From a bacterium (GTDB taxonomy: Bacteria; Patescibacteriota; Microgenomatia; JAMCZE01), in contig JAKBJL010000001.1 of assembly GCA_021836035.1 (NCBI GenBank), positions 44,370-108,369 on the forward strand: 64,000 nt of DNA, in the 5' to 3' direction. Position numbers and translations under genes: made by a program. This document shows, one piece after another, positions 7,701 through 56,022 of the stretch (position 1 is the first letter of the stretch; every line of letters begins with the position of its first letter). The notes under the pieces were generated by a model, which was given only the letters and a program-made list of their open reading frames with translations, was not told the DNA's origin and ran no database searches.

Positions 7701-7717
7701 TAAAATAGGGAGTTTAA

Positions 7718-16209: not shown

Positions 16210-16304
16210 TACTAGCAATAAATGCCGAGAAATGGCTGGAAAATAAATAGAATAATTTACGCGAATTAAAAACGAATTCACACGAACACTTTGATTTTAA
16301 AAAG

Positions 16305-16450
16305 GGTGGTAACCAGCGGGGAGCCCCATTAGGCGTATGAGCCCCCTCTCCATTCGCAAGAGTAGAAAGACTTCAACTAAAAAGGAAAGTGACTAAACCA
16401 GTCGTGTGGGCTAAATAGCTTGGTTGGGACCGCTGATTGCCGGGGCTCCT
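16305..16450 (+). repeat. MITE-like intergenic repeat, copy D
   Basis: TTTTAAAAAGGGTGGTAACCAGCGGGG ... GGGACCGCTGATTGCCGGGGCTCC. TTAAAA on both flanks. Confidence 0.65.
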
Positions 16451-16460
16451 AAATTAAAAA

Positions 16461-22784: not shown

Positions 22785-23513
22785 ATGAGGGTTTTACTTT
22801 ACGGCCGTTTTGGCATACACCCGGGGGAGGTTGAGGAACTCATTAGGGTCCACGGGCTGGAAATAATTACTCCTCCGGTTCCTCCCGACTCGCCCGGGGT
22901 AGCTCCCGATGTCGTCGTCACTTACGGCGGAGACGGGACCTTATTGGGTTCCGAGCGCGATTATCCGGGAATTCCCAAATTACCCCTGCGGAACAGCCAA
23001 ATTTGCCATCTCTGTTCAGCCCTGCCAAACGAAAGAATGCTGGAATTGTTGGCCCAAAACAAATTACATACCAGGTATTTGATGAAACTAGAGGCTGTAA
23101 CCGGCAAACAAAAAATAACCGCCCTAAATGACATTATCCTTGCCCACAAGTTCCCCAATACCGCCATTCGCTTTCGCCTTGCTTCTCCTGACCCGCTGCC
23201 CCGCTACCACGCTGCTCCGACTGACCTTATCGGCGATGGTCTCGTTATTGCTACCCCCTTCGGCAGCACCGGCTATTTTTACAGTATTACCCATAAAACC
23301 TTTTCCGGGGGGCTGGCTTTGGCTTTCAATAACCTCCACAATTCCCGGCAAAAAATGCAACTGTTCCCCGAAACGAAAACCGTTTCTATTTCCCTAACCC
23401 GCGGTCCGGCCGTCCTGGCGGCCGATAACGATCCCAACCTGCTGGATCTTCCCGAATCCGCCGAAATCCAAATAAAAAAATCGAAACAGGTAGCAAAAAT
23501 ACTTACCCCTTAA
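22785..23513 (+). CDS. nadK: NAD kinase
   Basis: GGDGTLL motif and an NAD-kinase C-terminal beta domain. Start taken at MRVLLYGRF. Confidence 0.8.
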   Translation: MRVLLYGRFGIHPGEVEELIRVHGLEIITPPVPPDSPGVAPDVVVTYGGDGTLLGSERDYPGIPKLPLRNSQICHLCSALPNERMLELLAQNKLHTRYLMKLEAVTGKQKITALNDIILAHKFPNTAIRFRLASPDPLPRYHAAPTDLIGDGLVIATPFGSTGYFYSITHKTFSGGLALAFNNLHNSRQKMQLFPETKTVSISLTRGPAVLAADNDPNLLDLPESAEIQIKKSKQVAKILTP

Positions 23514-23514
23514 T

Positions 23515-23672
23515 TTTAGAAAGGGTGCCAACCACCGAGAATCCCAAAAACACATGCGTATCCCCCTCTTTTAAATAACAAAGGGGAAAGAGAATAGAAT
23601 AAAGAAAAACTTTTAAAAGAATTGTCATGGTGGCTAACCGGCTTTCGGGGGTGGGTAGCTGGCGGGATCCTT
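23515..23672 (+). repeat. MITE-like intergenic repeat, copy E (divergent)
   Basis: TTTTAGAAAGGGTGCCAACC ... GGTAGCTGGCGGGATCC, flanked by TTGAATTAAAA. Confidence 0.6.
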
Positions 23673-23688
23673 GAATTAAAATACGAAA

Positions 23689-29380: not shown

Positions 29381-29580
29381 ACAGCGGTTAGTATACCTTA
29401 GTTTTAACCGGGGTGACACCCGACAGGAGCCCATAAAAAATGTCTCCGGGCATCTCTCTCTAAATAGGTTTACATAAATTAACTTTTGAAAAAGATTCTA
29501 AAAATTGATTGGCTGTTATGGCGAGGAGGGTTTTGGGGGCTATTGGGTGGTATGACCCGAATTATAAATTATGATTTTAA

Positions 29581-31506
29581 TTATTTTTCCGCTATCGCCA
29601 GTGCAACTTTGGGGTGGCCCATGATTTTTTCAAACTCTTCCCCTTCTAATGTTTCCCTGGCGATGAGCGCCTCCGCTACTTTGTCCAGAAGCTTCTTATT
29701 CTTTTTAAGAATATCCGTAGCTAGCTGCATACCCTCATCTAACAGCCGTTTTATCTCCTGGTCAATCCGGCCCGACATATCCTCGGAAATTTTCTGCGGC
29801 TCCTGGTAAAAGCGCCCCATAAAAGAATCCAGATGGTCGCCGAAATTGACCGGTCCCAAATTGGACATCCCGAATTCCGTCACCATTTCCCGGGCAATGG
29901 AAGTCGCGTTTTGGATATCGGCAACCGCCCCGGTTGTAACATCATTAAAGATTATTTGCTCCGCCACCCTGCCCCCCATCATGGCGGCAATTTGCTCTAA
30001 AAGATGTGATTTGGTCTCATGCAGGCGGTCCGCCTCGGGCGGATTAAAAGTTTGTCCCAAAGTCATCGCCCGGCTGACAATGCTTACCCGGTGTACGGGA
30101 TCCAAATGCGGCAATTCATGGATCACAACCGCATGCCCGGCCTCATGGTAAGCGGTCATCTTGCGGTCCAAATCGGACTGCAGCCGTTTCTTTTCCGGCC
30201 CCAACTTCACCTTGGTAGCCGCTTCCTCAATATCGATGGGATCAATGCTTGTCTTGCCTAACCGCGCGGCGAGAATTGCCGCTTCGTTGAGCATATTTTC
30301 TAAATCCGCACCGGAAAAACCGACAGTCCGCTTGGCAACCTTATCCCAATTTACCTCCGGGGTAAAAGGCTTACCGCGCATATGAATCTTTAAAATAGCC
30401 AGACGCCCCTCTTTGTCCGGCAAGTCAAGACTTACCCTCCGATCAAAACGCCCCGGACGGATCAAGGCCGGATCCAGGACGTCCGGGCGATTTGTAGCCG
30501 CCATGACAATCACGTTTTCGTTGGGAGCAAAGCCGTCCATTTCTACGAGGATTTGGTTTAGTGTCTGCTCCCGCTCGTCATGCCCGCCGACCAAACCCAT
30601 GCCCCGCTGCCGGCCGATCGCATCAATCTCATCAATAAAAATAATTGCCGGGGCGGCTTTTTTTGCCTGGGCAAAAAGATCCCGGACCCGGGAGGCACCG
30701 ACACCAACCAGCATTTCCATAAACTCGCTGCCCGCCATGGAGAAAAACGGGACCCCAGCTTCCCCGGCTACTGCCTTGGCAAGCAAAGTTTTTCCCGTTC
30801 CGGCCGGGCCGATCAATAAGACTCCTTTAGGCGTGCGGGCCCCGAGCAGCTGGTATTTACGGGGGCTCTTGAGAAAATCGACGACTTCCGTAAGTTCCTG
30901 CTTTGCTTCGTCCACCCCGGCGACATCGGAAAAAGTCACTTTCGGTTGGTCTTTTGTGTAGGGTTTAGCCCGTGAGCTGCCGAAAGACATAATGGAATCC
31001 TGGGCTCCCCGCGCCTGTCGGAATACCCAGAAGAAAAATACTCCCATAAGCACTAAAGGCAAAATATTGGACAGGATATTTATCCAATTGTTTGATAGTG
31101 AGGTATCCTGAACGGTTATTTTCGTACTGTCAGGATTAATCCCGGCCGCTTCGAGCGTCCGGATAAAGGATTCGTCGCTTTCTTTGCGGGAAACCGCCGT
31201 CTGGCCGTTTTTATACTTAATCGTCAGGGTATTATCAGCAACGGAAACCGAATCAACCTTCTGATCCTTGATGTCCTGTAAAACTGTCGAAAGCGGCTTA
31301 TTCTCCACGCTGGCCGGAGGCTTGACAAAGGAAGCAAAGATCGTTAAGGCGACAAAGGCAATAAAGAGGTAAAAAAGAAAATCCTTGAAAGAAAAATGGA
31401 ACCGCAGCTCCATCTTCTTTATCGGTTTCTTCCCGTTACCCTTGCCGTTGCTATTACCCCCCGTATTGCTTCCTCTCCCCAGTATTTTTGGTATGGATAA
31501 TTTCAT
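29581..31506 (-). CDS. ftsH: ATP-dependent zinc metalloprotease FtsH
   Basis: Walker [12 protein letters not shown] region, HEAGHA zinc site. Gly/Asn-rich low-complexity N-terminal tail. ATG at 31506 preferred over the TTG at 31533. Confidence 0.9.
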
Positions 31507-31516
31507 ATACCTTAAT

Positions 31517-31665
31517 TTTAAAAAGGGTGACAATTAGCGCGGCACCCTAAAAACGTACGTACTCCCTCCCTCTTCGCTAAATAAAACAATTCTCTTAAGG
31601 AAAAACAAACGGGTTGGTTGTATGGGCGAGTCGGCTTATTGGGACTGCGAGCTACCAGGACCCTT
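31517..31665 (+). repeat. MITE-like intergenic repeat, copy F (starts about 10 nt from the ftsH ATG)
   Basis: CTTAATTTTAAAAAGGGTGACAATTAGCGCGG ... GGGACTGCGAGCTACCAGGACCC. Confidence 0.65.
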
Positions 31666-31668
31666 AAC

Positions 31669-32016
31669 TCACCTTACCACCGAACCAGTTACTACATCCT
31701 CATCGAAATTATACAGGACTGCTTTCTCGTCTGAGGCGACCGCCAGAACCATCCCCGCGCTCTCGTATTCTTTCTCTCCGATCTTAAACCTTTTCGGTGC
31801 CAAGTTTACCACAAATGCCAACTTTCTGCCGGCCAACTTTTCCGGTGGATACCAAGGCTTTATCCCCGCACAAATGGTTCTTTTTCCGAGTTCCACACCA
31901 AAGTCCACTACCATCCTGACCAATTTATCGCTGCCCTCAACAGCCCCGCTCTCCACTACCTCCCCGACCCGTAAATCCAGTTTAGAAAAATCCGCGTAAT
32001 CAATTTGTGGTTTCAT
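31669..32016 (-). CDS. free-standing tRNA-binding domain protein (CsaA/Trbp111/EMAP-like OB fold)
   Basis: DLRVGEVVE...KL....VDFG....R.I..GI motif of the MetRS C-terminal/CsaA family. Overlaps the trpS stop by 17 nt. Confidence 0.75.
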   Translation of the reverse strand: MKPQIDYADFSKLDLRVGEVVESGAVEGSDKLVRMVVDFGVELGKRTICAGIKPWYPPEKLAGRKLAFVVNLAPKRFKIGEKEYESAGMVLAVASDEKAVLYNFDEDVVTGSVVR

Positions 32017-34560: not shown

Positions 34561-34629
34561 CGCGGGGTAGTGTAAAGTTGCATGGAAGGCTCATAATCTT
34601 CCGGTCCTGGCGCGATTCCAGGCCCCGCA
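34561..34629 (+). tRNA. aberrant tRNA-like sequence, anticodon CAU; possible pseudo-tRNA
   Basis: 7-bp acceptor stem with a C1xA72 mismatch. 6-nt D-loop without GG. Anticodon stem GAAGG/TCTTC with loop CTCATAA. T-arm CCTGG-CGCGATT-CCAGG lacks T54-Psi55. Discriminator A. Confidence 0.3.
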
Positions 34630-34684
34630 ACAAGGAGCGCGAAGCGCAGCTCGGTCCCGAGCTTGTCGAGGGACACTTCATTAT

Positions 34685-34930
34685 ATGTGGTTTGTCTACG
34701 TTCTCCTCTGTATAGATGGTAGCCTCTACACCGGAACTTCCACTAATCCTAATAAAAGATTTTCCGATCACAAAAACGGCAAGGGTGGTCGCTACACCAA
34801 AACCCACAAAGCCACCAAGCTCCTTTACACCGAACGGCTCGCTTCAAAATCGGCTGCTTTAAAACGCGAAGCCCAAATCAAAAGTTGGAGCCGCCAAAAG
34901 AAAATTCGAGTATTGAAATTGAAAACTTGA
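34685..34930 (+). CDS. GIY-YIG nuclease family protein (81 aa)
   Basis: FVYVLLCIDGSLYTGTSTNPNKRFSDHKNG...KLLYTE...EAQIKSWSRQKK matches the GIY-YIG domain consensus. Confidence 0.75.
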   Translation: MWFVYVLLCIDGSLYTGTSTNPNKRFSDHKNGKGGRYTKTHKATKLLYTERLASKSAALKREAQIKSWSRQKKIRVLKLKT

Positions 34931-35035
34931 TTTCTTTTCCTCCCCGCAACTTAGAGATTTGGGCTGCGTAGACTATCTAATATCCTTGACTCAATTTCTT
35001 TAATGGCGTGGGTGGATGGCGTTCCGGCTTTTACA

Positions 35036-36457
35036 TTATTTAATTTGATACCTCGGAATTTTCTCTAGTATCTCCGTTCCTTTTGAAGTCTGGAAAACCT
35101 TTTTATACGAACTCTCGAAATACTTGAGCATCATTTTTTCTGGTGCGGTCTCGAGCGGGGTGGGTCTGTATATAACCACCTCCGGCGGGGATGATCTGAG
35201 GGCCCGAAGATTATCTTCCCCCGCATAGGCCATTTGCCAAGAAAGTTGATCGAGCCAGGGTTTAAACGCCGGAGGCTGGTTTGTAAGCGCATAAACCAAG
35301 TCCGGCCCGTGAAATGAATAAAGAGATCGGCCTGAATATTTTTGCTTAATGTAAAGGGCCACCTGTTTTATCTCATCGTCGTAATACGGTTGATCAACCC
35401 GCAAGTGCCGCATAAATATAGAAGTCCCTACAATGAAAAGACTAACCAAATAGGTAACCAAAAGTGGCCCTCTCGACAGCTGTTTGCCTGTTGACACTAT
35501 TCCCAGGGTCAGAAACGAGAAAACTAAGGAAGACTCCAGTCGAGAATAGGCAAAGTTTGGAAAGGCGAAGAGGAATGTAGAAATAATCCAAGCGGCCAAA
35601 AGCAGCGAGGGCAAGGTGTTTTTTCTGAGGGCGAAAATTATTGGTGGCAACAGAAACAACCCTACAGCCAGAGATTGTCTCAGGCTGGGTAGGCGCAGGT
35701 AAGGTAACACACCGATAATTTTTGCTTGCGGTATAACCAATATAAATTTTATTCCCCATTTTAAAAAATCAAACAGAATATTTTTTGAAATGAGCCAGAC
35801 GAGGAAAAACGAGAGAACCAAAACAAGAGGAAACCCGAACCACAAAAATGTTGTTAATACTCTTTGTAAATTAAACCTTCTCTTGCCTCGCAGCAGCAAC
35901 AAATAAGGAACAAAAGCCAAGAGCGACAGGGCTGCGGTTTGTTTGATCAGAATTGCAATTCCGCTTATGAGCCCGACAGAGGCTATTTTCCACCATCTTT
36001 GTTTTGAGGCAAAGGATACCTCAAGTAAGAATATTGCCAGAAGCAAAGGCGGCAGGAGGCTGTCGAACCAAAATTGGTTCCCTTCAAAATTCAACAGTAT
36101 GTAACCGAGAAACAGACCAAATACAAAACTTCTTAGCTTGTTTTTTGAATAGTAATATATCGTTAGCATAACGATTCCCACGATAAGAGAGAGAAGTATC
36201 GTTCCCAGGTAGTGCAAAAATTGAGGGTCGTATCCGACCAAGCCAAAAAGTGTTTGCAGGGCAATGGGCAACAGGGGGGTATAAACCATGGAAAAGTCTC
36301 TATAGGGGATAAAGCCATGGTTCATAAAGAGGGGGTAGTTAAGCATTTCCGGCCAGTAAGTGAACATGGTTTTATAGCTTAGCAATATGACGAAAATAAG
36401 TGGTAAAAGGAACCACAGTAAAGAAATAAAAACAGTAATTAATGACTTGTTTCTCAC
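35036..36457 (-). CDS. polytopic membrane protein, probable GT-C fold glycosyltransferase (PMT/ArnT-like)
   Basis: About 12 TM, 473 aa, periplasmic-loop pattern typical of GT39/GT83-like enzymes. Confidence 0.6.
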   Translation of the reverse strand: MRNKSLITVFISLLWFLLPLIFVILLSYKTMFTYWPEMLNYPLFMNHGFIPYRDFSMVYTPLLPIALQTLFGLVGYDPQFLHYLGTILLSLIVGIVMLTIYYYSKNKLRSFVFGLFLGYILLNFEGNQFWFDSLLPPLLLAIFLLEVSFASKQRWWKIASVGLISGIAILIKQTAALSLLAFVPYLLLLRGKRRFNLQRVLTTFLWFGFPLVLVLSFFLVWLISKNILFDFLKWGIKFILVIPQAKIIGVLPYLRLPSLRQSLAVGLFLLPPIIFALRKNTLPSLLLAAWIISTFLFAFPNFAYSRLESSLVFSFLTLGIVSTGKQLSRGPLLVTYLVSLFIVGTSIFMRHLRVDQPYYDDEIKQVALYIKQKYSGRSLYSFHGPDLVYALTNQPPAFKPWLDQLSWQMAYAGEDNLRALRSSPPEVVIYRPTPLETAPEKMMLKYFESSYKKVFQTSKGTEILEKIPRYQIK

Positions 36458-36475
36458 AAATCAATTGTATCAAAC

Positions 36476-36552
36476 ACAAAAGTCCCTCTCGGGGCCGAAT
36501 TACCGAACAGAATAATCTTCTTGGTTGGGGACAGAACTAGGGGGCCGGTAGA
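36476..36552 (+). repeat. partial or degenerate MITE-like copy J (right half only)
   Basis: ACACAAAAGTCCCTCTCGGGG ... CTTCTTGGTTGGGGACAGAACTAGGGGGCC resembles the internal and right parts of the family. Confidence 0.3.
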
Positions 36553-36559
36553 GTTAGAA

Positions 36560-36787
36560 AGTGATTTCTGATTTCTTGCACTCCCCCAACAGAGTAGGAA
36601 CGGAGGCCATAGGGGCCGCTGTTTTCGTTATGTCATCGGCCCTTTCGTTGGGTGCAACTCTGCTTCCAATTACCGGAGCAAGAGTGCCAAGAGCGCCTCC
36701 CTTAAGGTAAACCGGGGGTTCGTCACGGGTATAACCAAAGGCGGCTTTAAGGAGTGTCGGTTCAACTTCTGCGGGTAGCGGTTTCTA
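36560..36787 (-). pseudogene. possible gene remnant: 76-codon open frame without a start
   Basis: Protein-like translation (KPLPAEVEPTLLKAAFGYTRDEPPVYLKGGALGTLAPVIGSRVAPNERADD) bounded upstream by a stop, with no Met. Confidence 0.25.
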
Positions 36788-36889
36788 AATTTATATTGCG
36801 GATTCATTCCTTGTCTATTACACCTTGGGTGTCAGAAAATTTGGGCGGAGGGCATTGAACCCTATCACCAGATATGACCCAATAATAAT

Positions 36890-37360
36890 ATGGACGAGGA
36901 TTCGCAACATACAAACGAATTTGGAGAAATTGAGGCATTTAAGGATACGGAATACTGGTTCAAGAAAGATTTCCAAACAATAAAGAGGTCCCCTACCGCC
37001 ACTCTCAAAGCAATACCACTAATCTTGCTGGCTACTTACTTATTTTCATTGTTGATGACCCAATTGGGCGGGACTGGGGCTGATTTTCCGTTAGCTTTTA
37101 TTTACTCTCTTGTCTTCTCACCAATTTTCTTGCTTGGATATTTAATGTTTCATATTATTGCCACTAAGGGGTATGACATTGATCCCTATGCCGGAACTCA
37201 CATTAACTCACCACAACACGTAAACCGCTTCTCGGTTAGTTATATTATGAATTCCGATATGCCGACCGGACGAAAAATAATGTTTTTATTAAGATACGCA
37301 TTTTATGTTTTGCTAGCAATAGGACTCCTCTTAAATGTCTTTGTGGGTTTAAAGAAATAA
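36890..37360 (+). CDS. hypothetical membrane protein (156 aa), AT-rich (about 38% GC) relative to the region
   Basis: ORF with TM segments and a clear compositional difference. Immediately upstream of tRNA-Met. Confidence 0.5.
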   Translation: MDEDSQHTNEFGEIEAFKDTEYWFKKDFQTIKRSPTATLKAIPLILLATYLFSLLMTQLGGTGADFPLAFIYSLVFSPIFLLGYLMFHIIATKGYDIDPYAGTHINSPQHVNRFSVSYIMNSDMPTGRKIMFLLRYAFYVLLAIGLLLNVFVGLKK

Positions 37361-37715
37361 CCCCCAATACAGCAGGGTTGGCTTATGACACCGGGATAAA
37401 AATGGGTTCGGGAAGCGTGAGGAAATAATTTCTGGTTTCTTTTCCCTCGACGGCTCGGGACAAGCTTCTTCGGAGAATTGGTTCTGCGGAATTTTTAAGG
37501 ATCAATAAATTAAACGCCGCGGAGGCTTTTCATCGCACGGCTCGGGGAGTCCGCAAGGGCGGTGGGGTCATATCGGCCACTCCACGCCAGGGCTGCCCGG
37601 GATTATACGGAAACCCCACTCCCCCGCGCGGAAATCTTACGTTTAAAAAAAGAGCGCAACCAACAGAGACGCTATCAATTCCTCTAAATCCCGGATTTTA
37701 GTATAATATCCCTGC

Positions 37716-37787
37716 GCCAAGGTAACTCAGTGGTAGAGTGCCGCCCTCATAAAGCGGTTGTCGGGAGTCCGATTCTCCCCCTTGGCA
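37716..37787 (+). tRNA. tRNA-Met/Ile2 (anticodon CAU), elongator type
   Basis: Acceptor GCCAAGG/CCTTGGC, D-arm ACTC-AGTGGTA-GAGT, anticodon loop CTCATAA, T-arm GGGAG-TCCGATT-CTCCC, discriminator A. TATAAT lies 9 nt upstream. Confidence 0.8.
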
Positions 37788-38132
37788 CTAAAAAATAAGG
37801 TTTAGCCACTTTTGCCAGTTGGGAATATTTATCGGCTTGGCTTCCGGGGTTGCCGCTAAAAGTTCCGGGGGGATAATAACGATATCCTCCCCTTCTTTAA
37901 CCCAATTAAGTTTATCCCGGGCCTGTTCTTCGATAAACTGGGGCGTTTGCACTTTGGCCGCTTCCTCCTTTAGCTTTTCATTTTCCGCCGCTAATTTATC
38001 TACCTCCGCCTGGGCATCGGTTACCTTTTTCCCCGCGCCCAAGAGGCCGATGGTCGCCTGGACTGTTGCGACAATAAAAAATAACCCCAAAATGATGACC
38101 AAAAGACGAACCCGTCGGTGTCCCATAAGCAA
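37788..38132 (-). CDS. ftsB: septum formation initiator family protein (FtsB/DivIC-like)
   Basis: N-terminal TM then coiled coil (DAQAEVDKLAAENEKLKEEAAKV). Length 114 aa. Confidence 0.7.
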   Translation of the reverse strand: MLMGHRRVRLLVIILGLFFIVATVQATIGLLGAGKKVTDAQAEVDKLAAENEKLKEEAAKVQTPQFIEEQARDKLNWVKEGEDIVIIPPELLAATPEAKPINIPNWQKWLNLIF

Positions 38133-38226
38133 CTACTATGTACCCCTAGACCCTTTACATCTTTATCTCCCCCTGCTATTATAGGGGCCTAGAATTGCAC
38201 CTGCGCTCTCTCAGGCTACAAGCTTT

Positions 38227-39072
38227 ATGCACGACTGGCAGAAAAAATTTCTCGAATACTTAAAATCAAAATCCCGGGCCACGGCTACCGTCATCGCCTA
38301 CGGTAAAGATATCGGTCAGCTCTTAGAGTACTTGGAACAGCAGGGAAAGTCAAACCTGGCGGAAATTACGACTGCCGATTTAAACGGTTTTTTGGGGAAA
38401 CTGGCCAAAGAAAACTACACTCCGAAATCGATCAGCCGCAAAATCAATTCCCTGAAAACTTTTTTCCGCTTTTTGGCAGCCGAGAAAGTAATTGCCGATA
38501 ACCCCGCCGCCGGCATCTCTCATCCAAAGTTCGAGACCAAACCCCCGCGGATTCTCTCCCCCCTGGAATACCGGGCGCTCCGCGACGCTTGCCGCGATGA
38601 CTTTAGAATTGCCGCCGTGGTAGAACTTTTGCTCCAAACCGGCATGCGCATCGGAGAATTAGCCGCCCTAGAGCTAGATAGCGTCAACGAACACGAACTG
38701 AAAGTCCCCCCGATTGAAGGGCACCCGGAAAGAACCGTTCCGTTAAATAAAGCCGCCAAGGGTTCGCTCGATCGCTACCTCTCTATCCGCCCCAGGGTAA
38801 AATCACCCGCCCTTTTTATTACTAAAACCGGCCGGCCGCTGCTTATTAGAAACATCCGCACGGCGATTGACCGCTACTTCCGCATCGCCGGGATCAAAGA
38901 AGCCAAAGTCAACGATCTGCGGCACACCTTTATCGCCCACCACCTGGCCGCCGGCGCTTCCCCGGTTCTGGTTTCCCGCCTGGTCGGACATAAAAGAATA
39001 GCCACGACGGAAAAATATCTGGAATTTATTAAAGACATGCCCGCGGAGAAGATTAAACTGGAAGAGCTCTAA
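38227..39072 (+). CDS. tyrosine site-specific recombinase, XerC/XerD family
   Basis: N-terminal SAM-like core-binding domain. Catalytic R..(K)..HxxR..H..Y region: DLRHTFIAHHL and GHKRIATTEKYL. Confidence 0.85.
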   Translation: MHDWQKKFLEYLKSKSRATATVIAYGKDIGQLLEYLEQQGKSNLAEITTADLNGFLGKLAKENYTPKSISRKINSLKTFFRFLAAEKVIADNPAAGISHPKFETKPPRILSPLEYRALRDACRDDFRIAAVVELLLQTGMRIGELAALELDSVNEHELKVPPIEGHPERTVPLNKAAKGSLDRYLSIRPRVKSPALFITKTGRPLLIRNIRTAIDRYFRIAGIKEAKVNDLRHTFIAHHLAAGASPVLVSRLVGHKRIATTEKYLEFIKDMPAEKIKLEEL

Positions 39073-39391
39073 AACTACGATAGGCTCAATCTCCAAATCC
39101 CCAACCGCGATTCCCCATAACTTAATTATTTCGTTTTTTTTCTCGTATTGCTGGCTATGGCTTCGGTTTCCTTTCCTTCCCGGGTTAACGGCCCCCTTTG
39201 TTCCTGACGACCCGGGTTAGTAGCGTAACCAATTGTTAACCAATGGTTAGTTTCTTTCGTCTCTTTTTTCACTATGGTATCGCAATTAATAAATGCCCGA
39301 CGGGTTGAGCAACCATCCGCTTCTTGGTCATTAGCGCCGACTGAAGTTGCCGACCCACTTGCCTGATCAATAATATTTGGTTTTGGAGGGT

Positions 39392-39420
39392 TTTAGGAAG
39401 AATCTTTAGGAAATTTAGGA
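39392..39420 (+). repeat. three direct repeats of TTTAGGA within 29 bp downstream of the recombinase gene
   Basis: Read directly at 39392-98, 39405-11 and 39414-20. Confidence 0.3.
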
Positions 39421-39922: not shown

Positions 39923-40963
39923 ATGGAAATACCCAAGGAATTTTATATTTCGGAAGAAATTGCTACCTATCGCGACGACGAAAAACGCCCTGCCGAATGC
40001 CGGATACCCGTCCAAAAGCTTTTTAGCGCTTATGGAAACCTTGTGGAAAGTGGAAATTGGGAAGCAGGAACGGTTGCCCTGCAACCCATAAATTACCGTG
40101 AAGAAGACTCCCCCCGCCTGCCTATACCCTATCTTAAAACCATCCGTAATGGTCCCGCCTTTTGGTCGCTGGCCGGCATTCACGGTGAGGAACCGGCCGG
40201 GCCAAACGCCCTGGTCCGTAACATGGATATCCTGGCGGAATTAGGAAATCATATCCCCGTTGTCGTTTTTCCCCTCTGTAATCCTAGCGGTTATGTACGA
40301 AACTGGCGCTATTTCGACGAGTTCCGTGACCATAACATCGGAAACAGCGTCGGTGACAGTGATCATTTGCTTTTAAGCACAAAAGGCCTTAACCAGCCGC
40401 GCCGGGCGGAGCCAAGCAGCCCTTATGCCCTGGCCCTGGGTGAAAAAATGCTCGAACTCGCCCGGGAATATCCGCCCCTCATGGTCATTGACCACCATGA
40501 GGATGAGGACACCAGCCGCAAGAGAAGGCGGACAACTTTTTATATTTATGCTCATGGCCATTGGGGTTATGATGACTGTGTCGGAAAAAAGATTGTGGAA
40601 ATTCTTCTGCAGCACGGGATGAAGATAACGCTTAGCGGATATACCCGCTTCGGGGAAAAAATAAAAAACGGGATTATCGCCAATGCCGACGATGGCTCTA
40701 TTGACGATTTCTTGGCGGCGGAGAAAATCTGGCACCTGGGGCAAATTGAAGCGGGGCCAAACGTCGCCTCCGTTGTAGTTGTAGAAAATCCCGCGGTGAA
40801 AATAAAACTGACCAGCAGGATTGCTGCCCACGGAGAAATTGTCCGCAATTATCAGGAACTGCTAAAAATCAGACTGGCCCAGGAACAGGAGAGCTGCCCG
40901 GACTTACCCGAAACTATTTCTCCGTTAGGGATTAAAAAGCGCCCGGCTTCAACCGCTACATAA
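39923..40963 (+). CDS. M14-family zinc carboxypeptidase / succinylglutamate desuccinylase-aspartoacylase-like
   Basis: Zinc-binding motif SLAGIHGEEPAG (HxxE) and downstream NPSG. Confidence 0.7.
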   Translation: MEIPKEFYISEEIATYRDDEKRPAECRIPVQKLFSAYGNLVESGNWEAGTVALQPINYREEDSPRLPIPYLKTIRNGPAFWSLAGIHGEEPAGPNALVRNMDILAELGNHIPVVVFPLCNPSGYVRNWRYFDEFRDHNIGNSVGDSDHLLLSTKGLNQPRRAEPSSPYALALGEKMLELAREYPPLMVIDHHEDEDTSRKRRRTTFYIYAHGHWGYDDCVGKKIVEILLQHGMKITLSGYTRFGEKIKNGIIANADDGSIDDFLAAEKIWHLGQIEAGPNVASVVVVENPAVKIKLTSRIAAHGEIVRNYQELLKIRLAQEQESCPDLPETISPLGIKKRPASTAT

Positions 40964-41061: not shown

Positions 41062-43437
41062 TTATAGGTGAGAACGGGCTGATATTTCCGCCTCGACCGT
41101 CCGGACATCCCGGCCGTATTTCAGGGCCGAAAGTTCTTTGATCATGCCCGCGACGCGGGGATTACGCGACTTATTGATCCGCTCAAAGTCATGGTTGATT
41201 TCGATACTGAACGGCGGCAGGGGTTCGTTATCAACAACCGTCTTAACATAGGCATTGAAAGCTTCCACCTTCAAAAGGTCCTGCTCGTTAAAGGTGGGGG
41301 TATATTCATGGGCCAAAAACTGAGCATCGTTCACCCCGGTCCGAAAAGTAATTTTCGTCCCGACATTGCCGAAGACCGCGTTTCTGACCTCCTCCTCCAT
41401 TTGGGAAATAAACTGGTTGGCGACCGTCAAATTCAGGCGGTATTTGCGAGCCTCGGAAAGAATGGTGGCAAAATCCGGGGTAGCAAAATTCTGAAACTCG
41501 TCAACGTAAAGATAAAAGTCCCGCCGCTGCTCCATGGGAACATTGGTCCGGCTCATGGCGGCGGTTAAAATTTTCGGAATCAACAAGAGCCCCAGGAAGT
41601 TGCTGTTCTCTTCCCCGATAAGGCCCTTGGCCAGGTTAATAATGAGAATTTTGCCTTCGTCCATTACCTGCCGGAAATCAAAAGAGCTTTTGGACTGCCC
41701 GATCATATTGCGCATCAGTTTGTTCGTCGTAAAGCGACCGAATTTAGAGACAATATAATCTAGGACTTCGCTTTTGTGGAACTCGGCAGTCTGGGCGATT
41801 TGGTCGGTCCAATAACGACGGATAATCGGGTCAGAAACTTTGGGCAATAATTCCTGGACATAGGTCGGATCGGTCAGCGCTCTTTGCACCTCGATAAAGG
41901 TTGTCCCCGGCTGGACCATAACCGTAAGCATCGCGTTTCTGATATTGTGTTCCAGACGGGGGCCCACGATACCGGTCTGATGGGGGTCATACAGTTTGTA
42001 AAACAGGCCGATAATCGAAGTGACGATATAATGCTTCTGCTCCTCGGTATAGGCCTCCATAATGTTTAAACCCATGGGCCGCGCGGTGTTGCTGGGATCA
42101 AAATAGATAACGTCTTCCGCTCTTTCGGGGGGCATCTGCTCCAAGATGGTTTCATAAGTATCGTGGGGATCAATAAAACAAACCCCCTTGCCGGCGCGGA
42201 TATCCTGCAAAATCATCTGGGACATAAGAAGCGATTTGCCGGTACCGGTCGCGCCGACGATATAGACATGTTGCCTCCGGTCGTCGTCGGAAATATAGAC
42301 CGGCCGCTCGTCCCCGCGGTAAACGGATTTCCCGAGATAAAGTCCGCTGCTGGGAATTCCCTGGGGAGCCGGCGCCCGCTTGGCATTAAGCCAATAAATA
42401 TGCGGGGTTTCGACAGCCTTATTGGGGAAATGAAAGAGGGTGGCCAGTTCTTCCGTCGTCAAAACACCCCCAAATTTCAGCATGGGCTGGTAACGGTAGA
42501 CGAAATCCGTCATGAAGTTACCTTGTACCCAGATCTTATCTTTGGTAAAGCCGTTAAGCTCCCCGTTAAATTGCTCAAAAGCTGCTTTAATGTTTCCTAA
42601 AATCATCTTGGCATCCGCCCGGGTTTTTGCCGAGACAACTATTCTTAACGAGAAATTAAAGCCCGGTTTGCCGGTTTTATTCTCGATAGTTTCCAAAGTT
42701 TTAGCGTCCACATTAAATTTAGCCTTTTCCGGATCGGCCTCATTCTTCTTGGTCCGGGAAATATATTTTTTGCCCAGGCTGCGCCACTTATTTTCGGCCG
42801 GGGAAATTAAAAGTTGGATTGCTGCCCCCTCCCCTTCCCCCAGCTTAGCCAGGGCTGAGGTAATCACGGATATGGGGTCAACCGCCAGGTCCTTATAGGT
42901 TTTAAGCGGGAAGTAATAGGAGGAGCGCAGCTTTAACGACAGATAGGCCACTTCCCCGTCTTCGGAAAAGATATTGTAGTCTTCCACCTGTTTGACAATA
43001 GCCCCGGGGTAAGTCCCGTGGATTTGTTTTTCAACCAGATCTTTGACCTGTTCGGAGCAGGAAATATAAAAACGGATGTTCTCGTGTTCCGCGACAATTT
43101 CCAAAGATAAATGTTCCTGGGGGGTTAAAAATGGCAACTTCCACATGGGGCCGCCCTTTTTCAAAGAGTAAAGGGAGGTAAAAAATTGCTCCATGGCGTC
43201 AATTTTTATTTCGTTTTCCCTGGGTACGGCTACCTGTAATAAAACAAAGTCCAGGGCATGCTCTTCGCGTTTACGCCACTTAATAAACTGATAAAACAGA
43301 TAAAGGAAAAGCGCTCCGGCGGCAACAAAAAGCAGCAAAACTACCAAAATGACGGCAAATTCTACCAAGAGGGCCTCGAAATTAGAGAAGAATTCGAAAC
43401 CGGGAGCGGCAGGATACATACTACAATGATAGCACAA
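41062..43437 (-). CDS. T4SS-type P-loop ATPase with N-terminal TM anchor (VirB4/VirD4-TraG-like, FtsK/HerA superfamily)
   Basis: One long hydrophobic N-terminal segment, Walker A VYIVGATGTGKS, Walker B FYLYVDEFQNF. 791 aa. Confidence 0.7.
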   Translation of the reverse strand: MCYHCSMYPAAPGFEFFSNFEALLVEFAVILVVLLLFVAAGALFLYLFYQFIKWRKREEHALDFVLLQVAVPRENEIKIDAMEQFFTSLYSLKKGGPMWKLPFLTPQEHLSLEIVAEHENIRFYISCSEQVKDLVEKQIHGTYPGAIVKQVEDYNIFSEDGEVAYLSLKLRSSYYFPLKTYKDLAVDPISVITSALAKLGEGEGAAIQLLISPAENKWRSLGKKYISRTKKNEADPEKAKFNVDAKTLETIENKTGKPGFNFSLRIVVSAKTRADAKMILGNIKAAFEQFNGELNGFTKDKIWVQGNFMTDFVYRYQPMLKFGGVLTTEELATLFHFPNKAVETPHIYWLNAKRAPAPQGIPSSGLYLGKSVYRGDERPVYISDDDRRQHVYIVGATGTGKSLLMSQMILQDIRAGKGVCFIDPHDTYETILEQMPPERAEDVIYFDPSNTARPMGLNIMEAYTEEQKHYIVTSIIGLFYKLYDPHQTGIVGPRLEHNIRNAMLTVMVQPGTTFIEVQRALTDPTYVQELLPKVSDPIIRRYWTDQIAQTAEFHKSEVLDYIVSKFGRFTTNKLMRNMIGQSKSSFDFRQVMDEGKILIINLAKGLIGEENSNFLGLLLIPKILTAAMSRTNVPMEQRRDFYLYVDEFQNFATPDFATILSEARKYRLNLTVANQFISQMEEEVRNAVFGNVGTKITFRTGVNDAQFLAHEYTPTFNEQDLLKVEAFNAYVKTVVDNEPLPPFSIEINHDFERINKSRNPRVAGMIKELSALKYGRDVRTVEAEISARSHL

Positions 43438-43484
43438 CAGTTGGATTTAATTTCTAATTTCTAATGGCTAATTCTTTTATATTT

Positions 43485-43646
43485 CTTTTAAAAGGGTGGT
43501 AACTCGCGGGGCGTTGTCTTTGACAACGCAAAAGCGTGCGAACCCCCACTTTTTTTGCAAGATAAAGTAAAAATCTATTTAAGAAGGGGGGGGCTAAGCC
43601 AGCCGCGCGGGTGAGTTGGTTTATGGGGGCCGCGGGCTACACCCCT
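43485..43646 (+). repeat. MITE-like intergenic repeat, copy G
   Basis: TTTTAAAAGGGTGGTAACTCGCGGGGCGTTGTCTTTGACAACGC ... GGGGGCCGCGGGCTACACCCC, then TAAATTAAGG. Confidence 0.65.
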
Positions 43647-43649
43647 AAA

Positions 43650-44150
43650 TTAAGGTAATTGTTTATCCCTAACTACTGACCCCCTGAAGAATTTGACGAG
43701 GTAACCGGCCTTAAGAAGTTCGTAAATAAACCACTCGGCGAGCCAGCGAAAAGATTTGGAAACGGGGGCTTTTTTGCCTTCCGCTAACTGATCGTCGGTT
43801 AAAACTTTTCCGCGGACGGCAAATTCCGGGATCGCATGGTGTATTGGCGTTTCTGCTACGGCCTGGGGTTTAATACCCATCTCCCTTGCCAAATCCTGCG
43901 GCACCCGCACTTCTCCGCTCTCCACCCGGTCAATACCCAACTCTTCCATTTCCTTCTCTGTTTCCAATTCGTGACCGTAGCTAAGCCAGTACTCATCGCC
44001 TTCCCTTTTAGCAATTTCGTCGGCAACTTTAAGATCCCCCATCTCGCCGACAGATTGGCCAACTTGCTCTTTTTGTAATTGCCCCGCTGAATTTGCGGTA
44101 GCCTTTTTAACAGGAGCGTCGTCTTGGATCGTTACTTTAATTTTACTCAT
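43650..44150 (-). CDS. hypothetical protein (166 aa)
   Basis: ORF immediately upstream of the T4SS-type ATPase. Confidence 0.45.
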   Translation of the reverse strand: MSKIKVTIQDDAPVKKATANSAGQLQKEQVGQSVGEMGDLKVADEIAKREGDEYWLSYGHELETEKEMEELGIDRVESGEVRVPQDLAREMGIKPQAVAETPIHHAIPEFAVRGKVLTDDQLAEGKKAPVSKSFRWLAEWFIYELLKAGYLVKFFRGSVVRDKQLP

Positions 44151-46234: not shown

Positions 46235-46264
46235 CAAGGCCAAGCCGCGATACTTTGATCTTAG

Positions 46265-46403
46265 AAAGGATAGTAGCCCGCGGGGCGCCCCAAAAACGTA
46301 CGAACCCCCCGCTTTTGCTAAATAAGATTATCTTTGGGAAAAACAAATAAAGTTAGCCGTGTGGGTGAGTTAGCTTCTTGGGGCTGCGGGTTACCGGGAC
46401 CCC
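46265..46403 (+). repeat. MITE-like intergenic repeat, copy H
   Basis: GGATAGTAGCCCGCGGGGCGCCCCAAAAACGTACGAACCCCCC ... GGGGCTGCGGGTTACCGGGACCCC, then AAATTAAGAT. Confidence 0.65.
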
Positions 46404-46586
46404 AAATTAAGATAAAAGCATAAACCAGATCCCGGTTGCCGCCTAAAAATAAATAGGGCCAGTTTATAACCTTAAGTTTTTCGGGGGGCCTTATTGCCCC
46501 AACGCACAGCTGAGAAAATAATGTAATAAGGGTGGCTCATCGCCATCTTTGCGGGGGACTTTGCAAGGGGCGGTATAACAAATCTG

Positions 46587-52110: not shown

Positions 52111-52118
52111 ATTTGGAA

Positions 52119-52139
52119 TCTGAAATCTGAAATCTGAAA
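52119..52139. repeat. tandem heptanucleotide (TCTGAAA)x3, 8 nt upstream of the gap start codon
   Basis: Read directly. Additional TTTCAAATT motifs lie in the same AT-rich spacer. Confidence 0.5.
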
Positions 52140-52227
52140 TGAGTGTTTAAAACATTTCAAATTAAATAATTTCAAATTGTTTAAATTAAAACTTGAAATT
52201 GTGAATTTGCCAAAATAAATTGAGTAA

Positions 52228-55831: not shown

Positions 55832-55852
55832 TTAAATTATTTCCTTAGTTAT

Positions 55853-56009
55853 TGAAGGGGTGGCAACTCGCGGGGCGCTGCCCCCGACAACACAAAAACC
55901 TACGAACCCCCCTTTTTGCTAAATAAAATAAGATTATCTCCGGGAAAAACAAATAAAGTTAGCCATGCGGGTGAGTTAGCTTCTTGGGGCTGCGGGTTAC
56001 CAGGGCCCC
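55853..56009 (+). repeat. MITE-like intergenic repeat, copy I
   Basis: GGGGTGGCAACTCGCGGGGCGCTGCCCCCGACAACACAAAAACCTACGAACCCCCC ... GGGGCTGCGGGTTACCAGGGCCCC, then AAATTAAGAT. Confidence 0.7.
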
Positions 56010-56022
56010 AAATTAAGATAAC

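Follow-up and report, generated by a model that had tools for sequence, protein, structure and literature searches.

Our analysis of a 64-kb stretch of a Gottesmanbacteria-like (CPR) genome, hereafter called the window, indicates that two distinct things adjoin in it: an ancestral block of tRNA-Met, ftsB and xer, and an array of insertions directly 3' of tRNA-fMet (Table 1). We put the probability of this reading at about 70%, including the proposals that the array comprises remnants of a family of serine-integrase elements targeting the tRNA-fMet end and that the Xer recombinase is unrelated to it. A sequence-only reading of the region had proposed an integrative element inserted or decaying at tRNA-Met, with the neighboring tyrosine recombinase as a component. 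Atypical, partly decayed element DNA does adjoin a tRNA, and an empty site in relative L025 and a recombinase-gene remnant point the same way, but the anchor is to be sought in tRNA-fMet rather than tRNA-Met, and the integrase in a large serine recombinase rather than a tyrosine recombinase. With tRNA and recombinase so reassigned, the locus is a decayed tRNA-linked island, ordinary in kind.

Table 1. Features of the two adjoining parts of the locus, in window coordinates.
Feature	Position	Strand	Evidence
Initiator-type tRNA-fMet, anticodon CAT	34561..34631	+	ARAGORN
Module 1 cargo: 81-aa protein, GIY-YIG domain only	34685..34930	+	Pfam GIY-YIG E 6.5e-19
Repeat A: right part of the arm, core TCCCCGCAAC (34941-34950), flank	34928..34980	+	nhmmer E 3.7e-8
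Module 2 cargo: polytopic membrane protein, PMT_2-like glycosyltransferase	35036..36457	-	Pfam PMT_2 E 8.4e-5, below curated cut-off
Repeat B: full arm TTAGAAAGTGATTTCTGATTTCTTGCAC, core CTCCCCCAAC (36581-36590)	36555..36595	+	nhmmer E 5.5e-8
Remnant, 3' end of large serine recombinase gene	36587..36787, homologous part 36587-36724	-	BLASTP/tblastn vs L024 recombinase
Weakened hairpin and U-run	36597..36625	+	homologous to strong terminator after tRNA-fMet in L024
Module 3 cargo: ORF156, 156 aa, three hydrophobic/transmembrane segments	36890..37360	+	ORF; GC 0.382
Repeat C: intact arm GGAAATAATTTCTGGTTTCTTTTCC, degenerate core CTCGAC	37418..37452	+	nhmmer E 1.8e-3
Elongator-type tRNA-Met(CAT)	37716..37788	+	ARAGORN; Rfam 62.5 bits
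ftsB/divIC-family division gene	37788..38132	-	Pfam DivIC E 2.8e-14
Xer-like tyrosine recombinase, 281 aa	38227..39072	+	Pfam and NCBIfam matches
TTTAGGA x3, local direct repeat	39392..39420 (copies 39392, 39405, 39414)	+	320 nt past xer stop

The two tRNA genes are separated by 3084 nt in the window. The first of them, overlooked in the sequence-only reading, has a C1 x A72 mismatch in its acceptor stem (CGCGGGG...CCCCGCA-A), from which, following established knowledge, we take it to be of the initiator type; it is 86–96% identical to the copies in relatives and is not listed by the Rfam tRNA model at the gathering score. Comparison with relatives had been suggested as a way to find an empty tRNA-Met site, and in L025 tRNA-fMet(+), a 49-nt terminator and tRNA-Met(+) indeed follow one another in the orientation seen in the window, but the DNA that varies lies 3' of tRNA-fMet and 5' of tRNA-Met. 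The two genes are 61–80 nt apart in L011, L007 and L009. The tRNA-fMet 3' end, CCCCGCAAC, is the likely anchor, an attB-like core, of the variable array.

The modules of this array are bounded by direct repeats of an arm of ~35 nt that ends in CCCCGCAAC. The three att-like copies in the window had escaped the sequence-only reading. They are matched, all on the plus strand, by an nhmmer profile built from 14 copies that all lie outside the window, and the same profile matches the tRNA-fMet 3' end and terminator in L003 (E 3e-5). Repeat A begins at the GIY-YIG stop codon, and its flank is similar to that of an L013 copy at 818. Repeat B matches copies in L005, L012, L013, L018, L020, L022 and L023 (blastn), and its flank (CAACAGAGTAGGAAC...GCTGTTTTCGTTA) matches the tRNA-fMet flank in L024; the left end of an element follows it, so that the junction has an attP-like arrangement. 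A free attP form was not seen. Repeat C is 92% identical to an L013 copy over 26 nt (blastn), and its 3' part is partly duplicated at 37526-37546. Copies in the window, L013 and L009 are located 3' of tRNA-fMet and share its orientation, with the exception of one inverted L013 copy at 2862-2884; in L012 the motif lies upstream of the same GIY-YIG gene, occupying the position of the window's tRNA end. The combination of arm and core had no match in IMG/VR and is rare in species-representative genomes and JGI metagenomes, as gauged by exact matches to one pattern.

It is conceivable that these repeats are instead transcriptional punctuation, i.e., conserved modules for 3' ends, termination or RNA processing that originated as copies of the tRNA-fMet terminator region, and that the genes arrived otherwise, for example by illegitimate recombination or, following DNA uptake, by homologous recombination anchored on the conserved tRNAs or the repeats. 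We consider this unlikely. Every copy does follow a gene end, usually with a hairpin and T-run behind it and a -10-like box before the next gene, but intrinsic terminators do not need the conserved 25-nt upstream arm, and the repeat alignment shows no consensus RNA structure. The hairpin after repeat B folds at -14.4 kcal/mol (z -2.1), as compared with -19.8 kcal/mol (z -5.6) for its L024 counterpart. Repeats of ~35 nt could anchor homologous recombination, and the window, L013, L009 and L012 all lack an integrase; yet profile matches with E below 0.01 are confined, in the 64-kb window, to the three repeats 3' of tRNA-fMet, the core repeat brackets an integrase-bearing element in L024 exactly, and a window copy is joined in the same register to the remnant of an integrase gene.

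What enzyme might have served the array? We found one intact integrase-bearing element, that of L024. It is 5.4 kb long, has copies of CCCCGCAAC at 738 and 6143 as its boundaries, and carries arm and core at the end opposite the integrase; L024 has four repeat copies in all, with three single-ORF modules following the element. The integrase is a 613-aa protein with Resolvase and Recombinase domains that matches PHROG 95 'integrase' (E 1.7e-42) and has no relatives in IMG/VR; its gene abuts tRNA-fMet and ends inside the 3' exon of the latter. This domain composition, an integrase gene at the element end reading across the att core, the short att-site identity and a divergent HTH regulator recall elements of the phiC31/Bxb1/TP901-1 type. 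Unlike those, the element targets the end of a tRNA gene rather than a protein-coding gene, and neither a recombination directionality factor nor phage structural genes were recognized.

The window retains the last 46–76 codons of such a gene. A start-less 76-codon frame had been described as a gene remnant at 36560-36787, and on the homology set out here it is a real remnant, of a large serine recombinase C-terminus, lying on the minus strand at ~36557-36784; it has no start codon, and stop codons truncate its upstream side. The encoded sequence is 43% identical to residues 550–595 of the 613-aa L024 recombinase over 46 aa (pairwise BLASTP, E 2e-10), five of the aligned residues being encoded by the conserved att flank. 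Searched against the whole window, the L024 protein finds this single match (tblastn, E 4e-6; reciprocal search E 2e-8). Both the window and L024 encode VPTLL across the core, which puts the two frames in identical register to it; the DNA flanking the remnant is likewise homologous to its L024 counterpart. Length alone would be unremarkable, since stop-free frames of 76 codons or more number 221 in the window and ~184 in random sequence, and protein-database searches gave no credible match for the frame. A degenerate MITE copy had also been placed beside it, at 36476-36552; a profile built from seven window copies of that repeat family, searched at the highest sensitivity and with matches up to E 10 admitted, recovered its seven copies and three more, and nothing in that interval. 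The MITE copy is thus not supported.

Module genes differ completely between genomes, with the sole exception of the GIY-YIG gene. Homologues of this gene occupy the locus in L003 and L012, and it is missing from L025, L011, L007 and L009, whose tRNAs are 49–80 nt apart. The PMT-like gene, whose longest ORF of 473 aa is given as 443 aa in the public record (end at 36367), has no counterpart here in any of the relatives and no matches to phage or defense systems; its GC content is 0.423 (z -2.0). The membrane-protein gene of 38% GC noted earlier, ending 355 nt before tRNA-Met, holds in its coordinates, composition and three hydrophobic segments: ORF156 has the lowest GC content of the 55 gene-sized ORFs in the window (z -3.2). 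It belongs to no family in Pfam, NCBIfam, PHROG or PADLOC, and among 5.8 billion proteins it has, besides the window's own protein, two homologues only (53–56% identity), both on contigs of ~36% GC and in unrelated gene contexts. The low-GC cargo was probably acquired from lower-GC relatives.

Based on these observations, we favor the following history. One element family would integrate site-specifically at the core CCCCGCAAC, which is the acceptor 3' strand plus discriminator base of tRNA-fMet. The enzyme would be a large serine recombinase, encoded by a gene that runs through the core, and crossover would presumably take place within the core; each integration would leave a right-end arm (~25 nt, AATAATTTCTGATTTCTTnCAC) and a core copy at the far end. 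The modules may have arrived successively: the first would comprise the GIY-YIG gene and be closed by repeat A, the second the PMT-like glycosyltransferase gene closed by repeat B, and the third the recombinase remnant and ORF156 closed by repeat C. With so few integrase codons left in the window, the modules would now be immobile remnants. An attL site does not normally serve large serine recombinases as a target again, and tandem accumulation therefore needs an extra assumption, either that attL served as a pseudo-attB or that integration occurred into repeat copies. In addition, the GIY-YIG gene, placed between the tRNA and repeat A, is shared with L003 and L012, which would allow more than one order of arrival; for at least some insertions the site used may have been a repeat copy, not the tRNA. 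Counting against the array model, repeat A is without the distal arm, the core of repeat C is degenerate, the alignment of the remnant is short, and L024 supplied the only intact element with an integrase.

How does such a locus compare with known islands? An array directly 3' of a tRNA and in its orientation, with the tRNA 3'-end repeated directly at distal boundaries, an integrase gene beside the tRNA in the intact L024 example, cargo of atypical GC, an empty site in relatives and several tandem modules, resembles the islands and prophage remnants found at tRNA and tmRNA 3' ends, including tandem arrays and decayed, integrase-less islets. tRNA-targeting islands typically use a tyrosine integrase. 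The locus differs from them in that the integrase is a large serine recombinase, the core is short (~9–10 nt) and stands beside a conserved arm derived from the element, the modules, of one gene each, are very small (0.3–1.6 kb) and the host is a CPR bacterium.

Short one-gene modules with a single conserved site and hypervariable content also recall integron cassette arrays and Xer-dependent IMEX/pdif modules. One may consider single-gene cassettes, each ending in an arm-plus-core site, that a resident recombinase acting in trans would insert and shuffle; the conserved Xer-like enzyme encoded two genes away might be this recombinase. One-ORF modules of 0.3–1.6 kb bounded by the conserved site occur in the window (three), L024, L013 and L023, gene content differs completely between genomes, and xer always lies within a few kb of the array, but the arrays of L013 and L009 extend away from xer, along the orientation of tRNA-fMet, to whose end the array is anchored. 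Moreover, Xer is found in all relatives and the motif only in some. The site has neither an Xer-type dyad (11-bp arms, 6–8 bp spacer) nor an attC-type palindrome, the match to the integron-integrase model of NCBIfam reaches 61 bits where the cut-off is 265, and a serine integrase with the right geometry exists, all of which makes such a platform very unlikely.

The second part of the locus is of a different kind. The sequence-only reading had ftsB and a tyrosine recombinase following tRNA-Met, as they do, and took the latter as a possible part of the element. An integrative element at tRNA-Met, with this recombinase as its integrase and the TTTAGGA triplet as arm-type sites, could draw on the recombinase lying within 450 nt of the tRNA, the low-GC genes close by and the non-random clustering of TTTAGGA, but we regard it as highly improbable. 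The variable DNA lies 5' of tRNA-Met, the conserved ftsB abuts its 3' side, and a repeat of the tRNA-Met 3' end was not found in the region. The divergent DivIC/Xer pair, with tRNA-Met beside DivIC, is kept in 9/9 independent relatives (L003, L005/L024, L007, L009, L011, L012, L013, L025), and tRNA-Met adjoins DivIC in every relative; it has its own conserved extended -10 promoter (TAGTATAAT) and is the ancestral neighbor of ftsB, with which it is convergent, not an integration target. Gene order and composition shared with relatives, which had been named as pointing to ancestral synteny, are what we find for the tyrosine recombinase, and the variable DNA is absent from the empty site of L025. 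The Xer gene is native in codon usage and composition (codon score z +1.1, GC z +0.8); the codon-usage score of the PMT-like gene has a z of -1.8.

Synteny in all nine relatives, conservation far above that of FtsB (64–75% identity for Xer, 35–45% for FtsB; 67–84% for the DUF8128 ATPase) and native composition and codon usage make a housekeeping Xer, which had been offered as an alternative, the better reading. The best 120 database matches listed, aside from the window's own protein, are 63–75% identical, the sources seen being Gottesmanbacteria, Microgenomates and Patescibacteria, and a TGnTATTAT promoter ahead of xer is conserved. Xer is a vertically inherited, lineage-wide core gene, most likely encoding a chromosomal Xer-type resolvase. 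In common with XerC/XerD, XerA, XerH and XerS, the protein has two domains, a SAM-like core-binding domain (residues 7–87) and a catalytic domain (residues 110–265); its best matches are XerD, XerC and XerA, with XerD (1a0p) and XerA as the best solved relatives. The gene resembles those of chromosome-dimer resolvases in being lineage-wide and more conserved than its neighbors, and we count its divergence from ftsB and its proximity to an FtsK/HerA-superfamily membrane ATPase as further likenesses. Unlike the dimer resolvases, it scores far below the NCBIfam equivalog cut-offs (164 bits against 330), and no dif site, for which a search had been suggested, was identified. The active-site residues are R141, E164, N229, R232, H255 and Y264, with Glu at the position of the conserved beta-hairpin lysine and Asn at that of the first histidine, both invariant in 15/15 aligned family members. 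With these two canonical catalytic residues missing from the family, a role in resolving chromosome dimers would follow from conservation and synteny.

The three TTTAGGA repeats are present as described. They begin 320 nt after the stop codon of the recombinase gene and lie in the 460 nt that separate xer from a U32_C-like gene convergent with it. Their proposed role as arm-type binding sites is implausible, since the 281-aa Xer is made up solely of the two domains, which leaves no space for one that binds arm sites. In addition, seven relatives lack the repeats downstream of xer, and the spacer holding them shows no significant fold. They form a non-random, unconserved local repeat that does not belong to the element. 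Taken singly, the heptamer shows no enrichment (12 copies, with 14.9 expected), and clusters of three identical 7-mers, of which ~0.05 would be expected per simulated window, occur at two loci in the window.

We propose that the locus is a decayed array of integrative elements, anchored at a tRNA and lying beside an ancestral ftsB–xer block, a reading to which we give a probability of roughly 70%. Integrative arrays linked to tRNAs are of a familiar kind; here the array brings together a serine integrase and an initiator tRNA in a CPR genome. The sequence-only reading had likewise suggested a decayed element at a tRNA, and this much stands, but the tRNA is not tRNA-Met and the integrase is not the neighboring tyrosine recombinase. 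ARAGORN detects a second tRNA(CAT) in the window, whose ends (CGCGGGG...CCCCGCA-A) leave a C1 x A72 mismatch. This mismatch is a hallmark of bacterial initiator tRNA, and we therefore call the gene tRNA-fMet. In the window, 3084 nt separate it from tRNA-Met. In L025 (handles of this form denote loci of relatives), the same two tRNAs, oriented as in the window, are 49 nt apart, the 49 nt being a terminator hairpin, and the distance is 61–80 nt in L011, L007, and L009. An empty site had been expected at tRNA-Met; these four relatives do carry one, but 3' of tRNA-fMet.

Where the gap is filled, its content differs from genome to genome, a GIY-YIG gene being the sole gene common to any two. In the window, L013, L009, and L024, modules and repeats lie on the 3' side of tRNA-fMet and in its orientation; relative to tRNA-Met, the variable DNA is on the 5' side. 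The window's interval runs from tRNA-fMet through the GIY-YIG gene, repeat A, a PMT-like gene on the minus strand, repeat B, a gene remnant with ORF156, repeat C, and a further 263 nt to tRNA-Met, and given the positions of the repeats it reads as an array of modules between the two tRNAs. In three relatives the anticodon loop of tRNA-fMet is split by a group I intron (Rfam RF00028); the window's tRNA-fMet has no intron, and a free-standing protein consisting of a GIY-YIG domain only starts 53 nt downstream.

Coordinates of the features discussed (window positions unless a relative is named).
Feature	Locus	Position	Strand	Detail
tRNA-fMet	window	34561-34631	+	initiator type
Repeat A	window	34928-34980	+	profile E 3.7e-8
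PMT_2-like membrane protein gene	window	35036-36457	-	
Repeat B	window	36555-36595	+	profile E 5.5e-8
Recombinase remnant	window	36587-36724	-	3' end of gene
ORF156	window	36890-37360	+	156 aa, three hydrophobic segments
Repeat C	window	37418-37443	+	profile E 1.8e-3
Partial duplicate of repeat C	window	37526-37546		
tRNA-Met	window	37716-37788	+	elongator type
ftsB (DivIC/FtsB family)	window	37788-38132	-	
xer (tyrosine recombinase)	window	38227-39072	+	281 aa
TTTAGGA copies	window	39392; 39405; 39414		
M14/AstE-like gene	window	39923-40963		346 aa
DUF8128 ATPase gene	window	41062-43437	-	791 aa
AATCTGA x3	window	52117-52140		perfect tandem
~180-nt family	window	3624-3779; 4945-5130; 7530-7706; 16281-16459; 23500-23684; 29392-29558; 31502-31677; 43481-43657; 46247-46415; 55842-56022	+	ten copies
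Paralogous gene pair	window	56648-58900; ~62386-64000		5.7 kb apart
tRNA-fMet	L024	473-746		
Group I intron	L024	494-701		77 bits
Group I intron	L009	7151-7381		70 bits
Group I intron	L013	1072-1277		57 bits
Core CCCCGCAAC	L024	738; 6143		
Four arm-plus-core repeats	L024	6114-7844		
Inverted repeat copy	L013	2862-2884		
tRNA-Ile(TAT)	L003	9075-9149		
tRNA-Ile(TAT)	L005	10014-10086		
tRNA-Ile(TAT)	L007	10322-10395		
tRNA-Ile(TAT)	L009	10933-11007		
tRNA-Ile(TAT)	L011	12243-12315		
tRNA-Ile(TAT)	L012	2892-2964		
tRNA-Ile(TAT)	L025	12025-12097		

The starting point for the repeat motif was a short blastn match between 36554-36591 of the window and several relatives. The consensus reads AGAAAATAATTTCTGATTTCTTnCACTCCCCGCAAC, and a hairpin comes about 10 nt later. 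A profile built from 14 copies, none of them from the window (four from L005, three from L013, two from L023, and one each from L009, L012, L018, L020, and L022), finds repeats A, B, and C, and it also matches the genuine tRNA-fMet 3' end plus terminator of L003 (E 3e-5). The motif ends in nine bases, CCCCGCAAC, that are the acceptor 3' strand of tRNA-fMet, its discriminator base, and one further base. This core recurs at 34942, one base shorter at 36583 (CCCCCAAC), and in degenerate form at about 37447, placing direct repeats of the tRNA-fMet 3' end at the distal boundaries. For L013, L009, and the window, all copies but one sit on the 3' side of tRNA-fMet and share its orientation, even where an inverted tRNA-fMet sends the array away from xer; the exception is an inverted copy in L013. 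In L012, the motif occupies the place of the window's tRNA end, upstream of the same GIY-YIG gene. Could the repeats be purely transcriptional? Such a role explains them in part, accounting for the hairpins and for the positions at gene ends, but it leaves the conserved arm, the restriction to tRNA-fMet, and the association with an integrase without explanation. RNAalifold predicts no pairs in the repeat alignment; we therefore regard the repeat as a DNA-level motif and reject a structured RNA.

The likely integrase of the array is seen intact in L024, which is the L005 locus extended by 2 kb. A gene encoding 613 aa abuts tRNA-fMet with its 3' end, overlapping the tRNA by 60 nt; the protein combines a Resolvase with a Recombinase domain, and PHROG 95 'integrase' is among its matches (E 1.7e-42). 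Beyond this gene lie a divergent HTH regulator and then unknown ORFs, with the first arm-plus-core copy 5.4 kb from tRNA-fMet. The core is present at both ends of this stretch and therefore brackets an integrase-bearing element, beyond which three more single-ORF modules, each bounded by repeats, precede tRNA-Met. The clearest case of one gene per repeat is the 1.7-kb segment of L024 in which four arm-plus-core repeats have three small ORFs (218, 81, and 117 aa) between them.

Next to the core, the window keeps only the 3' end of such a gene. A start-less frame of 76 codons, taken in the sequence-only reading for a gene remnant, proves to be a real one, on the minus strand. It aligns with residues 550–595 of the L024 recombinase (43% identity over 46 aa, pairwise E 2e-10), it is the single match of that recombinase in the whole window (E 4e-6), and in the reciprocal search against 14 loci it returns L024 (E 2e-8). 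The register is shared, VPTLL being encoded across the core in both genomes, and homology continues into the DNA just past the core (CAACAGAGTAGGAAC...GCTGTTTTCGTTA in the window, CAACAAAGTAGGAAC...GCTGTTTTTGTTA in L024). This flank includes a hairpin, strong in L024 (z -5.6) but weakened in the window's copy (z -2.1). On the strength of the alignment, the register, and the flank, we take the frame to be the stump of a large serine recombinase gene at the att core. Its length is unremarkable, as 221 stop-free frames of 76 codons occur in the window versus about 184 in random sequence. A word-indexed search of 5.8 billion proteins returned nothing for it, and from 1.84 billion representatives a full phmmer search drew just three matches, all of them weak, broken into several stretches, and to long proteins, and these are taken to be repetitive or low-complexity; its homologue was reached only via synteny, in L024. 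The weak point of the case for a serine recombinase is that it draws on one intact example and a short alignment.

How might the array have arisen? Elements of this family would integrate by serine-recombinase crossover within or next to the core, each leaving its right-end arm plus a core copy at the far end, and several insertions would have stacked up. Later deletions may then have taken the integrase and most of the element, with ORF156 and the PMT-like gene left as fixed cargo. Serine integrases are not expected to re-use attL, and stacking therefore needs a pseudo-attB or insertion at the repeat copies. With the GIY-YIG gene lying between the tRNA and repeat A, more than one order of events would fit.

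An alternative is a cassette platform, integron-like or driven by Xer, at the 3' end of tRNA-fMet in some Gottesmanbacteria. Single-gene modules of 0.3–1.6 kb, each closed by a conserved recombination site of some 35 nt, would be captured and stacked there and mobilized in trans by a large serine recombinase or, less likely, by the Xer-like enzyme. This finds no positive support and we consider it improbable. Sites of the attC type are imperfect palindromes whose ends read RYYYAAC...GTTRRRY. The repeats have neither a consistent dyad nor an attC-type consensus hairpin in their alignment, and a reading of the motif as an attC or Xer site was rejected; an inverse core partner, looked for by eye on the sequence, is present in one copy only and is taken as chance. 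The integron-integrase model reaches 60.9 bits against a cut-off of 265, and the arrays track tRNA-fMet, not xer. If the platform nevertheless existed, it would parallel integrons in function, though based on a different recombinase and on a tRNA end.

With the decayed array as the preferred reading, an ambiguous compositional island acquires a defined anatomy of anchoring tRNA, boundaries, cargo, and integrase family, of note for its module-by-module architecture, and the 3' end of the initiator tRNA emerges as a gene-gain hot spot of a reduced CPR/Patescibacteria genome. The motif and L024-type recombinases are both rare among the collections that were scanned, and IMG/VR gave 0 matches for each. 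The motif was found at four loci in species-representative genomes, two of them already known, and at four in JGI metagenomes, one being a chance match within a coding region. The signature AATAATTTCTGATTTCTTnCACTCCCCGCAAC makes the site searchable, and L024 provides one intact serine-integrase element usable for experiments. Large serine integrases with short, defined att sites serve as genome-engineering tools, and one that targets a universally conserved tRNA end would hold some practical interest.

The window has a GC content of 48.6%. Among its 55 gene-sized ORFs, ORF156 ranks last, at 38.2% (z -3.2; GC3 z -2.3), bearing out its earlier description as an AT-rich membrane ORF, and the PMT-like gene also deviates (GC z -2.0, codon score z -1.8), although four other window genes are low as well and membrane proteins tend to lower GC. 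The compositional deviation surmised for the island thus holds for these two genes but not for the recombinase, which is native (GC z +0.8, codon score z +1.1). A comparison with 5.8 billion proteins turned up only two homologues of ORF156 besides the protein of the window itself. Each comes from a contig with about 36% GC, where the gene context is unrelated, and acquisition from a lower-GC relative would fit. ORF156, the PMT-like protein, and the GIY-YIG protein have no match in PHROGs or PADLOC, and a tblastn search of phage genomes with the PMT-like protein was likewise empty; a phage, plasmid, or defense origin was rejected for these three.

The obvious integrase candidate had been the tyrosine recombinase beside tRNA-Met, and the sequence-only reading, whose positions for ORF156, tRNA-Met, ftsB, xer, and the TTTAGGA copies are all right, had it either serve an island at that tRNA or be a housekeeping XerC/D. 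Synteny and topology contradict the former. We compared nine homologous recombinases (64–75% identical) from independent assemblies (L003, L005/L024, L007, L009, L011, L012, L013, and L025, plus shorter duplicates). In 9/9 the recombinase is divergently paired with DivIC, and in every relative a tRNA(CAT) homologous to tRNA-Met lies at the far end of DivIC. Ancestral synteny was the outcome that the earlier reading had itself set against an island integrase, and the conserved tRNA-Met–ftsB–xer order therefore refutes it on its own terms: the candidate is a core gene, inherited vertically across the lineage in a conserved context, and tRNA-Met, ftsB, and the recombinase are ancestral. The wider backbone common to the relatives comprises FtsH, a tRNA-binding protein, and TrpRS, then the tRNAs, ftsB, and xer, and then a DUF8128/TraD-like membrane ATPase and ribonucleotide reductase. 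Across relatives, Xer is far better conserved than FtsB (35–45% identity) and close to the ATPase (67–84%), and the short ftsB–xer spacer keeps an extended -10 promoter, TGnTATTAT. Among the best 120 homologues listed, sequences other than the window's own protein are 63–75% identical and about 283 aa long, and the close ones are named Gottesmanbacteria, Microgenomates, or Patescibacteria by their sources. The window's own protein is encoded in the metagenome-assembled genome GCA_027371575.1, on the 343-kb contig DAHXMT010000002.1. A search of the window found no xer paralogue.

The ATPase, membrane-anchored and of the FtsK/HerA/TraD superfamily, has DUF8128, DUF87, and TraG-D_C domains and matches PADLOC mad8 (E 3e-19). 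Its homologues lie 1–3.6 kb downstream of xer in 7/8 relatives, with none seen in L009, and perhaps it partners Xer in division or DNA translocation and is no conjugation protein. Seven relatives have a tRNA-Ile(TAT) downstream of xer, and in six of them it adjoins the DUF8128 gene. This tRNA occurs nowhere in the window, nor does the closest relative, L013, have it; in the window's xer–DUF8128 interval an M14/AstE-like gene stands in its place.

What kind of enzyme is the recombinase? It comprises a SAM-like core-binding domain (Phage_int_SAM_1, residues 7–87, E 1.2e-17) and a catalytic domain (Phage_integrase, residues 110–265, E 7.7e-26), without an arm-binding domain, and its closest solved structures are XerD (1a0p, E 1.7e-24) and XerA. 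XerD, XerC, and XerA are its best family matches, but the scores fall far below the equivalog cut-offs (XerD, 163.8 bits versus 329.6; XerC, 160.3 versus 335; XerA, 145.2 versus 220; XerS, 74.3 versus 267). In the family alignment and a profile alignment to Escherichia coli XerD, the R-K-H-R-H-Y catalytic set is incomplete: R141, R232, H255, and Y264 are in place, the position of the beta-hairpin lysine (XerD K172) is a glutamate, E164 (IEGHPER versus GKGNKER), and that of the first histidine (XerD H244) is an asparagine, N229, beside a two-residue deletion. Both substitutions are invariant in 15 family members 63–75% identical to the window's enzyme. An invariant lysine, K200 or K227 for example, may serve as substitute. 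The protein is best described as a lineage-specific Xer-like enzyme. From its conservation and its linkage to a division gene, we infer that it may act as a dimer resolvase. This unusual active site, with neither catalytic lysine nor first histidine, prompts the question by what means, if any, chromosome dimers are resolved in these organisms; a literature search found no coverage of Xer/dif in CPR or of tRNA islands in Gottesmanbacteria. No dif-like site, the search for which the earlier reading had suggested as a check, stands out in the window: the canonical pattern is at chance (22 matches versus 24 expected), and neither the ftsB–xer nor the post-xer spacer contains a conserved dyad. GC skew shows no switch within the profiled part of the window (30–46 kb).

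Two further elements of the sequence-only reading concern repeats. The triple TTTAGGA stands in a 460-nt spacer, part of another variable interval that separates xer from the ATPase gene. As a local repeat it is real: simulated windows should contain about 0.05 triple 7-mer clusters each, and the actual window shows them at only two loci, although TTTAGGA overall is not enriched (12 copies versus 14.9 expected). Its proposed function as lambda-type arm sites falls, because the recombinase lacks an arm-binding domain and TTTAGGA clusters are missing downstream of xer in seven relatives. A pseudogene in this spacer was rejected (no match to relatives by tblastx or blastn), as were spacer-encoded ncRNAs: with Rfam, neither the gathering score nor a relaxed threshold (E up to 5) yielded more than the tRNA and a chance-level DUF805b hit over repeat B, and the 355-nt and 460-nt spacers fold no better than shuffles (z -0.47 and +1.15). 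Apart from TTTAGGA, just one triple 7-mer cluster of the window is non-random, the tandem AATCTGA.

The partial MITE claimed at 36476-36552 is not supported: the profile of the 180-nt family (nhmmer --max, E up to 10) finds nothing in that segment and recovers ten copies elsewhere, the seven used to build it and three more. All ten share one orientation, and most of those checked lie in gaps after the stops of minus-strand genes; two (3629-3774 and 7551-7696) are 98% identical. The ends are inverted repeats (AAGGGTCCCGGCAACCCGC ... GCGGGTTGCCACCCTT) with compensatory changes, 13/22 predicted pairs covary, and no Rfam family corresponds to the element. The family is MITE-like by its ends, but the shared orientation suggests a transcribed or structured element. 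Farther along the window, two paralogous genes share patches of 72–79% nucleotide identity, and the pair looks as if a large gene had been duplicated in tandem and had since diverged; the complete copy encodes 750 aa.
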